From: a virus
DNA: 64,000 bases
Direction: 5' to 3' (one strand)
Virus record (IMG/VR): IMGVR_UViG_3300047284_000378
Part shown: piece after piece, positions 24,010 to 50,998 of the stretch
Numbering within the stretch: the stretch's first letter is position 1
How the letters are laid out: each line of letters opens with the position of its first letter
Program-made: the position numbers and the translations under genes
The notes under the pieces: model-generated
What the model was told of the DNA's origin: nothing
Database searches by the model: none
What the model saw: the letters and a program-made list of their open reading frames with translations, nothing else

Positions 24010-24098
24010 GGAGCTTGATCCCTACGGCGGACTGTAAATCCGTTGCCTTAATATGTAGGGTGGCTGGCAATTAGGTTCGATTCCTTCAGGCTCCACCA
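24010..24098 (+). tRNA. tRNA-Tyr(GTA), aberrant 9/3 fold without a canonical D-arm
   Basis: GCGGA-CTGTAAA-TCCGT anticodon arm; 9-bp acceptor; AGG-TTCGATT-CCT; ACCA end. Confidence 0.7.
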
Positions 24099-24107
24099 AA
24101 ATTTAGG

Positions 24108-24136
24108 TTGACATTTTTTGAGTTTGGTGCTATACT
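24108..24136 (+). promoter_or_regulatory. sigma70-type promoter
   Basis: TTGACA-17-TATACT with TG extension. Confidence 0.8.
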
Positions 24137-24865: not shown

Positions 24866-24965
24866 GCCTCTGTAGCTTAATTGGTAAAGACGCGAGCTTA
24901 TACCTCGCCAAAGCACCGGCCAGATAAGCCGGCGTGTGCAGGTTCGAGTCCTGCCAGAGGCACCA
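24866..24965 (+). tRNA. tRNA with TAT anticodon (Ile?) and very long variable arm
   Basis: GCGAG-CTTATAC-CTCGC; ~30-nt V region with CCGGC/GCCGG stem; A73. Confidence 0.8.
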
Positions 24966-25868: not shown

Positions 25869-26766
25869 TAAAGAATTCAAGGGCAGCTTAATGTCCTGTA
25901 GGCGGTTCGCCGCTTACGAAGAATAACTCCTGTGAGGGAGCCAACAGATGTATGCCTACATAAGTCTGCCAGCGATGGTTCATTTAAGCAAGCCTGCTCA
26001 CTCCGGTGACGGAGCGTTCACTGATAAGACCGGTGGATGTAACAGCAAAGCTGATGTAGTGGAAAGAATGTTTGCTCAAGCGCCGCAAGGTAACGCAAGC
26101 AGATAGAGAGTAACAGGTGGTGCTGACCTCACTACAAAACCAATCAGTTAGTTGGTATGAGAAAGGGTAGTGTTCGGTTCCGAAGAGTCGCGTCTAAGGG
26201 GTCGAGCGCAGTTTGAGTGGTTAGTGGTAACGTAGCAATACGTTGACGCCGATCGCGAAGAACGACTGAGTAGCTCGCGAGGCAAAAGGTACGTGGTGTG
26301 TTGTATTCAGTAGAGCAAAACTTTATTGAGCAACAGAGGCAGCACATCGCAGTAGGTTCAGTTATAGCACAATTGGTAGTGCATCTCCCCTGTTAAGGAG
26401 ACGGCTGAAGGTTCAACTCCTTCTAACGTTCAAAAAAGCAAAGACTGCCTCGGTCATATGTGAAAAGCATCTAATACTTAGGGCGCAAGCCAACTAAGTC
26501 AGACGTAGCTCGCAAGGTGAAATCTGTTTATGCTGGAAGTTTCGTAAGGTGTTAGCGCACCTGAATAGCTCGCAAGGTTAACGGAATAGATAGCGTAGAA
26601 TAGCATATGACGACAAGACTACTGCCTGTCTTTAAAAACGGCGATGCTGATAGTGGACATAGGTACCGCAAGGGCTTATGTGGATGTCTAGAGAAGCTGT
26701 GCTCGCAAGGTGCAGTATAATGCTAGAGGCACTATTAGCTAACGTGTAATCTCAGCGTTAGCACCA
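25867..26766 (+). ncRNA. Large structured RNA, GOLLD-like (~900 nt)
   Basis: ORF-free, many hairpins capped by GCAA/GNRA loops, in a phage tRNA array, embedded tRNA-like domain, 3' GTAATCTCAG hairpin; size and context fit GOLLD. Confidence 0.7.
26361..26427 (+). ncRNA. tRNA-Asn-like domain embedded in large RNA
   Basis: D-arm GCAC/GTGC, TCTCC-CCTGTTAA-GGAGA (8-nt loop), GAAGG-TTCAACT-CCTTC; only a 4-bp acceptor. Confidence 0.65.
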
Positions 26767-27910: not shown

Positions 27911-27983
27911 GGTGTTGTTAGTGTAATGGCTGCACGGCTGTCTGTGAAACAGTAAGGGAGGGTTCGATTCCCCACTTCACCCC
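27911..27983 (+). tRNA. tRNA-His(GTG), imperfect acceptor and T stems
   Basis: G-1:C73; anticodon arm intact; 3' side 2 nt short. Confidence 0.7.
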
Positions 27984-32980: not shown

Positions 32981-32987
32981 TTCAAAA

Positions 32988-33077
32988 GGAGGATGCAGCA
33001 AGATGGTTCTTGCACCTGTTTGGAAAACAGGCGGCTGGCGTTGGCTGGCCGGGGTTCGATTCCTCCTTCCTCCGCCA
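32988..33077 (+). tRNA. tRNA-Ser(GGA), 8/4 allo-tRNA-like fold
   Basis: 8-bp acceptor, 6-bp D-stem with 4-nt loop, 7-bp V-arm, 4-bp T-stem, G73. Confidence 0.8.
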
Positions 33078-50887: not shown

Positions 50888-50998
50888 GTGGTCGTGAGTG
50901 GAACATGGAAGACCTCCGGTCCGTTGCGAAACGCACTAGGGAATAGGGCGCCGTCTTAGACACAGCCTTTGTAGGTTCGAATCCTACCGACCACACCA
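50888..50998 (+). tRNA. tRNA-Leu(TAG) with ~35-nt insertion between D- and anticodon arms
   Basis: GTGGTCG/CGACCAC acceptor, GCCGT-CTTAGAC-ACAGC, GTAGG-TTCGAAT-CCTAC, ACCA; 111 nt. Confidence 0.7.

Follow-up and report, generated by a model that had tools for sequence, protein, structure and literature searches.

The window analysed here, a single 64-kb stretch of DNA, carries at 24010-24098 on the plus strand a candidate tRNA-Tyr gene of 86 nt before the CCA. Inspection of the sequence found its helices and its anticodon all at the sites listed in the first-pass annotation. The acceptor helix, in which GGAGCUUGA (24010-24018) faces UCAGGCUCC (24086-24094), comprises 9 bp, one of them G.U. 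The 5' strand of its acceptor stem, G1-G8 (24010-24017), has its partner at 24087-24094, the pair G1-C72 being G24010-C24094, and is followed by a two-base connector, AU (24018-24019), of which A24018 is able to pair with U24086 as a ninth acceptor pair. At the position of the D arm lies CCCUAC (24020-24025), the 5' strand of a helix termed X here, which runs without a gap into the anticodon arm GGCGGA-CUGUAAA-UCCGUU (24026-24044), whose stem consists of 5 bp plus a G.U corresponding to 26.44. The anticodon GUA (24034-24036) is placed in a 7-nt loop, CUGUAAA (24032-24038), with U33 and A37. The variable arm that follows is closed by a stem termed V, with GCC (24045-24047; extendable by U24043-U24044, in competition with the anticodon stem) as its 5' strand and GGC (24066-24068; extendable by A24069-A24070) as its 3' strand. 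Between these strands lie the A/U-rich loop L2 (UUAAUAU, 24048-24054), the 3' strand of helix X (GUAGGG, 24055-24060) and loop L3 (UGGCU, 24061-24065), the UGG of the latter being directly 3' of the X strand. The T arm (24073-24085) has a 3-bp stem, AGG/CCU (24073-24075 / 24083-24085), around the canonical loop UUCGAUU. U24086, which pairs with A24018, and the acceptor 3' strand (24087-24094) then lead to the discriminator A73 (24095) and a genome-encoded CCA (24096-24098).

No D hairpin with G18 G19 is present in the window gene, in which at most 10 nt separate the acceptor and anticodon stems. The complementarity of CCCUAC to GUAGGG inside the loop of the variable arm, to which the first-pass annotation had drawn attention, is present as claimed, and it engages the 18-nt variable-arm loop in a knot. 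The strands succeed one another in the order X 5', V 5', X 3', V 3' and, since they are interleaved in this way, would make a true pseudoknot if both helices form. A minimum-free-energy fold of the 89 nt, in which the anticodon stem is disrupted, was set aside, knots not being representable in such a fold. Beginning ten bases past the CCA of the Tyr gene there is a near-consensus sigma-70-type promoter (24108-24136; TTGACA, 17 nt, TG-TATACT; 11/12 matches), which faces a small ORF and the main tRNA array.

ARAGORN, run over the 64-kb window, calls no tRNA at 24010-24098, and in a 1.1-kb search the Rfam tRNA model (RF00005) gives no match at the gene even at E-values up to 10. The tRNA-Sec model touches it at 28.4 bits, to be compared with a threshold of 47 bits, and Rfam 15 contains no family for a knotted tRNA-Tyr. 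A covariance model, R1, composed of the acceptor stem, X, the anticodon stem and the T arm, gives the window gene 104 bits and nothing else in the window more than 17 bits. Over 894 kb of related loci the R1 scores are bimodal: members, one per locus, score at least 70 bits and canonical Tyr genes no more than 40 bits, and not a single array tRNA in these loci scores between 40 and 70 bits. As measured by this model, the knotted tRNA-Tyr is a distinct class.

The gene is followed 272 nt downstream, on the same strand, by an array of 35 tRNAs, this being also the number called by ARAGORN over the window as a whole. The calls cover 19 amino acids and do not include Tyr, and none of three extra Rfam tRNA matches in the window is Tyr either. 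The proposal that the knotted gene is the only Tyr decoder in an otherwise complete set thus holds within the 64-kb window. The window appears to belong to a large phage, since it has tail-fibre-like and PHROG-family proteins and a GOLLD RNA in its array, and since identical or near-identical copies of the gene occur on IMG/VR contigs. CsgG, FecR, CHASE2-cyclase, ClpP and TctA are encoded in it as well. The GOLLD RNA (RF02032, 216 bits) lies at 26293-26758, within the tRNA array, and has embedded in it, at 26361-26427, a tRNA-like element with an 8-nt anticodon loop around GUU.

Some further tRNAs and tRNA-like elements of the window deserve mention in their own right. A 97-nt, five-arm tRNA at 24866-24962 is missed by ARAGORN and scores 57.6 bits with the Rfam tRNA model; it can be drawn either with a 25-nt D-loop hairpin and GAU after A33 or with a long variable arm and UAU, and genes of 90-92 nt in related loci are listed by ARAGORN as 'tRNA-Ile(tat)'. 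The 97-nt tRNA may be of the allo-tRNA(UAU) type, the predominant type according to Mukai et al. (PMC5389517). The tRNA-Ser(GGA) at 32986-33073, which has an 8-bp acceptor stem and scores above the Rfam tRNA-Sec threshold (48.5 vs 47 bits), is probably an (8/4) tRNA-Ser like those of alphaproteobacterial phages, and the tRNA-His at 27911-27983, with its unusually low score of 37.4 bits, may be a matching (8/4) tRNA-His. Far from the array, at 50888-50995, lies a weakly scoring tRNA-like element (29.1 bits, at threshold) with a good acceptor stem and T arm. Its anticodon reads UAG and its D region is expanded by a 52-nt insert; it could have been left behind by an attachment site, or it could be a further irregular tRNA.

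Relatives of the knotted gene were sought with a pattern made up of the anticodon arm and the T-loop, separated by a gap too long for a normal tRNA-Tyr. In this first scan 55 viral contigs matched, about 48 of them with the same build. Leaving the anticodon free gave at least 119 loci and, among the matches listed, the knotted build is found with GUA only; the matches with TAA and CAA anticodons proved to be ordinary tRNA-Leu and were rejected. A scan of one genome per prokaryote species yielded at least 120 loci, with about 112 true members among the matches listed. Most of the prokaryote matches listed fall on chromosomal contigs of Planctomycetota, where the carriers include Schlesneria sp. 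T3-172 (complete genome), Bremerella cremea JCM 17758, Thalassoglobus neptunius KOR42 and a Kuenenia MAG, while further carriers among the matches listed belong to Alphaproteobacteria, Melioribacteraceae and other groups. A plasmid search for the knotted gene produced no match.

Cultured phages are also among the carriers. BLAST and the covariance model find the gene in the Pseudomonas phages Lyrsu01-03 (host P. syringae) and SCYZ1 (host P. fluorescens); it lies at L173:463-547 in Lyrsu03 (PP179314.1) and at L174:582-667 in SCYZ1 (MH518298.3), each a 47-kb cultured phage, and is unannotated in Lyrsu01-03 and SCYZ1 alike. The Pseudomonas phage copies adjoin a tRNA-Pro(UGG), upstream of the small terminase gene. 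That tRNA-Pro is annotated in the Lyrsu records and is called by ARAGORN in both Lyrsu and SCYZ1, the knotted gene being missed. When the window gene was compared by BLAST with isolated phages the Pseudomonas group alone was recovered, and a GC-rich member used as query gave no match. Permuted (two-piece) tmRNA genes are present at L009:307-783, L017:4076-4467, L021:11753-12256, L036:7022-7494, L048:7114-7545 and L054:926-1340, and permuted tmRNA tags ending in FALAA or FELAA in related viral contigs hint at alphaproteobacterial or similar hosts.

A canonical tRNA-Tyr accompanies the knotted gene in all the cellular genomes checked, namely five Planctomycetia, two Phycisphaerae MAGs and Tateyamaria omphalii. 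The copy in T. omphalii KCTC 12333 (L058:967-1054) is a lone one amid carnitine and fatty-acid metabolism genes, with one X pair broken (U.U) and no other tRNA within 10 kb. The idea that it might be the sole tRNA-Tyr of this organism was rejected, a looser pattern having found a canonical Tyr gene at G001:C3:465703; this gene had been overlooked by the first canonical-Tyr pattern, which misses most Rhodobacteraceae Tyr genes, and by the Rfam list.

The pairing of helix X was assessed by counting base pairs in MAFFT alignments made without any fitting to structure. These comprise 36 viral sequences (A1), 60 distinct viral and cellular sequences (A2) and 109 sequences of which 106 come from cellular genomes (A4). 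The helix is 100% paired in A1, with compensatory changes at 4/6 pairs, 98.9% paired in A2, with such changes at 5/6, and 96.3% paired in the mostly cellular A4, again with 5/6, although kinship among the sequences inflates such counts. In A4 one of the X pairs is represented by UA 58 times, CG 33, UG 7, AU 3, GC 3 and GU 2, and another by AU 63 times, GC 32 and UA 7. The presence of G.U pairs in X indicates that the pairing takes place at the RNA level, on the plus strand. In a shuffle control 0/500 reach the observed covariation, in all three alignments, and shifting the partner by 1-3 columns reduces the pairing of the whole structure, all helices taken together, to 34-60%.

Helix X is still 98.6% paired when only the V stem, and not X, is used to fit the alignment, and the V stem itself, on the same V-fitted alignment, is 97.9% paired with 3/4 of its pairs compensatory. 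The middle V pair (37-66) in the unfitted A4 is UA in 71 sequences, CG in 28, GC in 5 and AU in 3. This stem is only 3-5 bp long, and U35/U36 have two possible sets of partners, one on the 5' side of the anticodon stem and the other among the purines that follow the V stem. On these comparative data the support for helix X is very strong and that for the V stem moderate and, both helices being supported, the knot is real. Covariation among homologues had been put forward by the first-pass annotation as a test of the X pairing, which is indeed maintained by compensatory changes across more than 150 distinct homologues. Its description of a gene having no D hairpin, with a pseudoknot in the place of the D arm, agrees with the X pairing of 96-100% and the covariation of the V stem.

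The remaining elements were compared across the relatives as well. Their acceptor stem of 8 bp is 98.6-99.4% paired, with compensatory changes at 6-8/8 pairs. The connector is UU in 52/60 relatives, as against AU in the window, and a ninth acceptor pair A-U is seen in 3/60 relatives, the others having U.U (A2). A fourth T-stem pair is kept and covaries in cellular relatives (GU 72, GC 26, AU 7 in A4), while the outer T-stem pair covaries in A2 (AU 44, UA 5, GC 3, CG 1). The 9/3 acceptor/T fold earlier described is therefore confirmed for the window gene and not as a trait of the family, whose plan, to judge from these relatives, is 8/4; with its 9/3 division the window departs locally from that plan while keeping the 12-layer branch. 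The anticodon stem covaries at 5/6 pairs in cellular relatives (A4), and two Pseudomonas phage copies show an A.C mismatch at its loop-closing pair. Loop L2 ranges in length from 4 to 11 nt, 7-8 nt being found in 48/60 relatives. L3 has UGG in 55/60, CGG in two and AAG in three, these three being the sole sequences of the 60 with a T-loop G in place of U55. A73 is present in 60/60 and 108/109 relatives, and G1-C72 in 102/109. The CCA is encoded in most viral copies and absent from most Planctomycete copies. The anticodon loop CUGUAAA is identical in all relatives, an invariance that is partly by construction since the collection patterns fixed the Tyr anticodon loop and the T-loop (and, in the second scan, also GGUGG).

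The argument for function that was drawn from the otherwise complete tRNA set of the window can be repeated in at least seven other phage arrays and in one bacterial chromosomal array. The viral loci L002, L008, L013, L021, L038, L047 and L052 each have 19 amino-acid types, no Tyr call and a knotted gene. On the chromosome of Schlesneria sp. T3-172 (NZ_CP172346.1) a 4.5-kb array (L292:4320-8831) contains 39 ARAGORN tRNAs for 19 amino acids, once more with no Tyr, and the knotted gene (83.4 bits) occupies a 101-nt gap flanked by tRNA-Glu and tRNA-Leu, with 7 nt on either side. This array is separate from the housekeeping tRNA-Tyr/Gly/Thr cluster of the organism; similar arrays are present in Bremerella, Thalassoglobus and one Pirellulales genome. 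Long tRNA arrays have been described as horizontally spread, supernumerary and, in some hosts, weakly transcribed, and that of Anabaena is induced under translational stress (PMC8421152).

Taken together, the covariation of helix X and the repeated pattern of the Tyr slot support the original reading of the gene as a functional tRNA-Tyr with a pseudoknot in place of the D arm. We consider it likely, arguing from sequence comparison, that the product is a working elongator tRNA-Tyr(GUA) with a non-cloverleaf, rewired core. Helix X is contiguous with the anticodon stem, and stacking of the one on the other, which is to be expected, would give 5 + 1 + 6 = 12 layers. A normal tRNA reaches about 12 layers when its four D-stem pairs are counted together with the anticodon stem, 26.44 and the layers 8-14 and 15-48. 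The acceptor/T branch would likewise keep its 12 layers. The variable-loop strand is predicted to run from the junction toward the elbow, where it would end in the near-invariant UGG; strand and UGG could then act as the 5' strand of the D stem and as G18 G19, with the UGG touching U55 C56 of the T-loop. That AAG replaces UGG in L3 only where T-loop position 55 is G fits such a contact, although the coincidence may reflect a single evolutionary event. Half of the D arm would thereby have been moved into the variable arm, with the L shape kept.

Bacterial TyrRS is known to recognise G1-C72, A73, G34 U35 A36 and the variable-arm stem, and since all of these are retained, tyrosine is probably the amino acid with which the RNA is charged. 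In that case it would supply Tyr within tRNA sets that move horizontally, both in phage arrays and in bacterial long arrays. As to origin, some canonical phage tRNA-Tyr genes agree with it in the anticodon stem and in the GCC/GGC variable stem, which in them encloses a tetraloop, and because these stems are common to both the knotted form seems to be derived, its variable loop having been enlarged. That loop would have grown from 4 to about 18 nt, taking over half of the D arm in the process. It is conceivable, if rather doubtful, that the knotted core is an adaptation, offering a D region that would go unseen by tRNA-cleaving defence nucleases or toxins in an RNA still accepted by TyrRS, EF-Tu and the ribosome. 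Were that so, Tyr decoding would survive destruction of the host tRNA-Tyr, and the RNA would constitute a natural orthogonal-shape tRNA scaffold.

Other readings of the gene have to be weighed against that of a working tRNA-Tyr. The absence of a call from ARAGORN or the Rfam tRNA model would be in keeping with a decaying tRNA-Tyr pseudogene, its D arm deleted and its complementarity accidental, but the more than 150 distinct homologues, spread over phages and several bacterial phyla, keep all the helices by compensatory changes, and with 0/500 shuffles matching the observed covariation we find such decay scarcely credible. It is very improbable, too, that the RNA takes part in translation charged with Leu or Ser, the other long-arm classes, and recodes Tyr codons, a role suggested for certain allo-tRNAs. 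In favour of Leu, bacterial tRNA-Leu likewise has A73 as its discriminator, and recognition by LeuRS involves tertiary features of the core, which the knotted tRNA would rebuild; for Ser, by contrast, SerRS identity normally involves G73 and a longer variable helix, where here A73 is found in 108/109 relatives and the V stem has 3-5 bp. The 8/4-9/3 branch and the long variable region do resemble those of allo-tRNAs, many of which have non-Ser anticodons (PMC5389517). Charging with either amino acid nevertheless sits badly with the homology of the gene to canonical phage tRNA-Tyr, with which it shares the anticodon stem and V stem, and with the cost of misreading all Tyr codons in phages whose arrays otherwise follow the standard code.

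The RNA might, alternatively, act outside translation altogether, as a structured tRNA-like molecule that is either a decoy or sponge for nucleases or toxins attacking tRNA-Tyr or a regulator that travels with mobile tRNA arrays. Several irregular tRNAs from polycistrons are charged but not used in translation, or are not charged (Mukai et al., PMC5389517), all the cellular carriers checked have a canonical tRNA-Tyr, and RNase P, EF-Tu or the ribosome might be unable to accommodate a core that is not a cloverleaf. We nonetheless regard this as unlikely: a decoy leaves unexplained why arrays that provide for all other amino acids should have no other Tyr gene, and the parts that have been kept, namely the 12-layer acceptor/T branch, canonical T-loop, A73, CCA and 7-nt loop with U33 and A37, are those that translation needs.

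If the knotted tRNA-Tyr is charged and decodes, it would be, as far as the literature searched extends, the first non-cloverleaf elongator tRNA outside organelles and the first elongator tRNA with a pseudoknot core, and it would reveal to what extent the D arm is really needed by RNase P, TyrRS, EF-Tu and the ribosome. Because standard gene finders miss the gene, the tRNA sets of phages and long arrays appear to be without tyrosine, and the database records of Lyrsu03 and SCYZ1 leave it unannotated. With cultured phages and cultured Planctomycetes among the carriers its function is directly testable at the bench, for which the Pseudomonas phages provide a tractable system.

It remains to compare the knotted gene with known systems. 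Canonical class II tRNA-Tyr(GUA), as encoded at viral loci L062 and L078 or in Schlesneria at G064:C1:3136632, shares with it the GUA in a 7-nt loop, G1-C72, A73, a canonical T-loop and a base-paired variable-arm stem. The canonical molecule is, however, the RF00005 cloverleaf with a D hairpin and a 7/5 split, whereas the knotted gene lacks the hairpin and is divided 8/4 (9/3 in the window). Pseudoknots and tyrosine charging come together in the 3'-end tRNA-like structure of brome mosaic virus, which is charged by TyrRS. In the tRNA-like structures of plant viruses the pseudoknot builds the acceptor arm, there is no decoding anticodon and the structure forms the end of the viral genome; the knotted gene, in contrast, has a plain acceptor helix and a proper anticodon loop, uses its knot in place of the D arm and is free-standing. 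The D-armless mitochondrial tRNAs, such as mt-tRNA-Ser(AGY) and nematode mt-tRNAs (PMC7609411), also lack the D hairpin and have a short connector between acceptor and anticodon stems. Theirs is a shrunken, flexible core with an unpaired connector, working with an adapted mitochondrial machinery, whereas the knotted RNA is enlarged (86 nt before the CCA), its connector is base-paired, and its bacterial hosts have standard machinery.

The closest likeness in the acceptor branch is to the allo-tRNAs (Mukai et al. 2017, PMC5389517), with which the knotted gene has in common a 12-bp branch divided 8/4 or 9/3, a long variable region and an occurrence in phage tRNA clusters. The allo-tRNAs have a tRNA-Sec-like D stem-loop, with a long stem and a tetraloop, and are mostly of Ser identity, while the knotted RNA has no such stem-loop and carries A73 and a Tyr anticodon. 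The first-pass annotation had stated that known 9/3 allo-tRNAs retain a D arm, which is consistent with that paper: a D stem-loop is present there in the (8/4) and (9/3) allo-tRNAs alike, and also in the tRNA-Ser and tRNA-His of (8/4) type from phages of Alphaproteobacteria (PMC5389517). Mukai et al. mention neither a Tyr species nor a pseudoknot and, on its predicted structure, the knotted gene is not an allo-tRNA in their sense (PMC5389517). Full-text literature searches found no description of the knotted design; a 2020 review of non-canonical tRNAs (PMC7609411) includes no such case, and surveys of tRNA arrays, including PMC8421152, do not mention it. Set beside all these systems, and as judged from the comparison of its homologues, the knotted gene represents a secondary-structure topology that is new among tRNAs.
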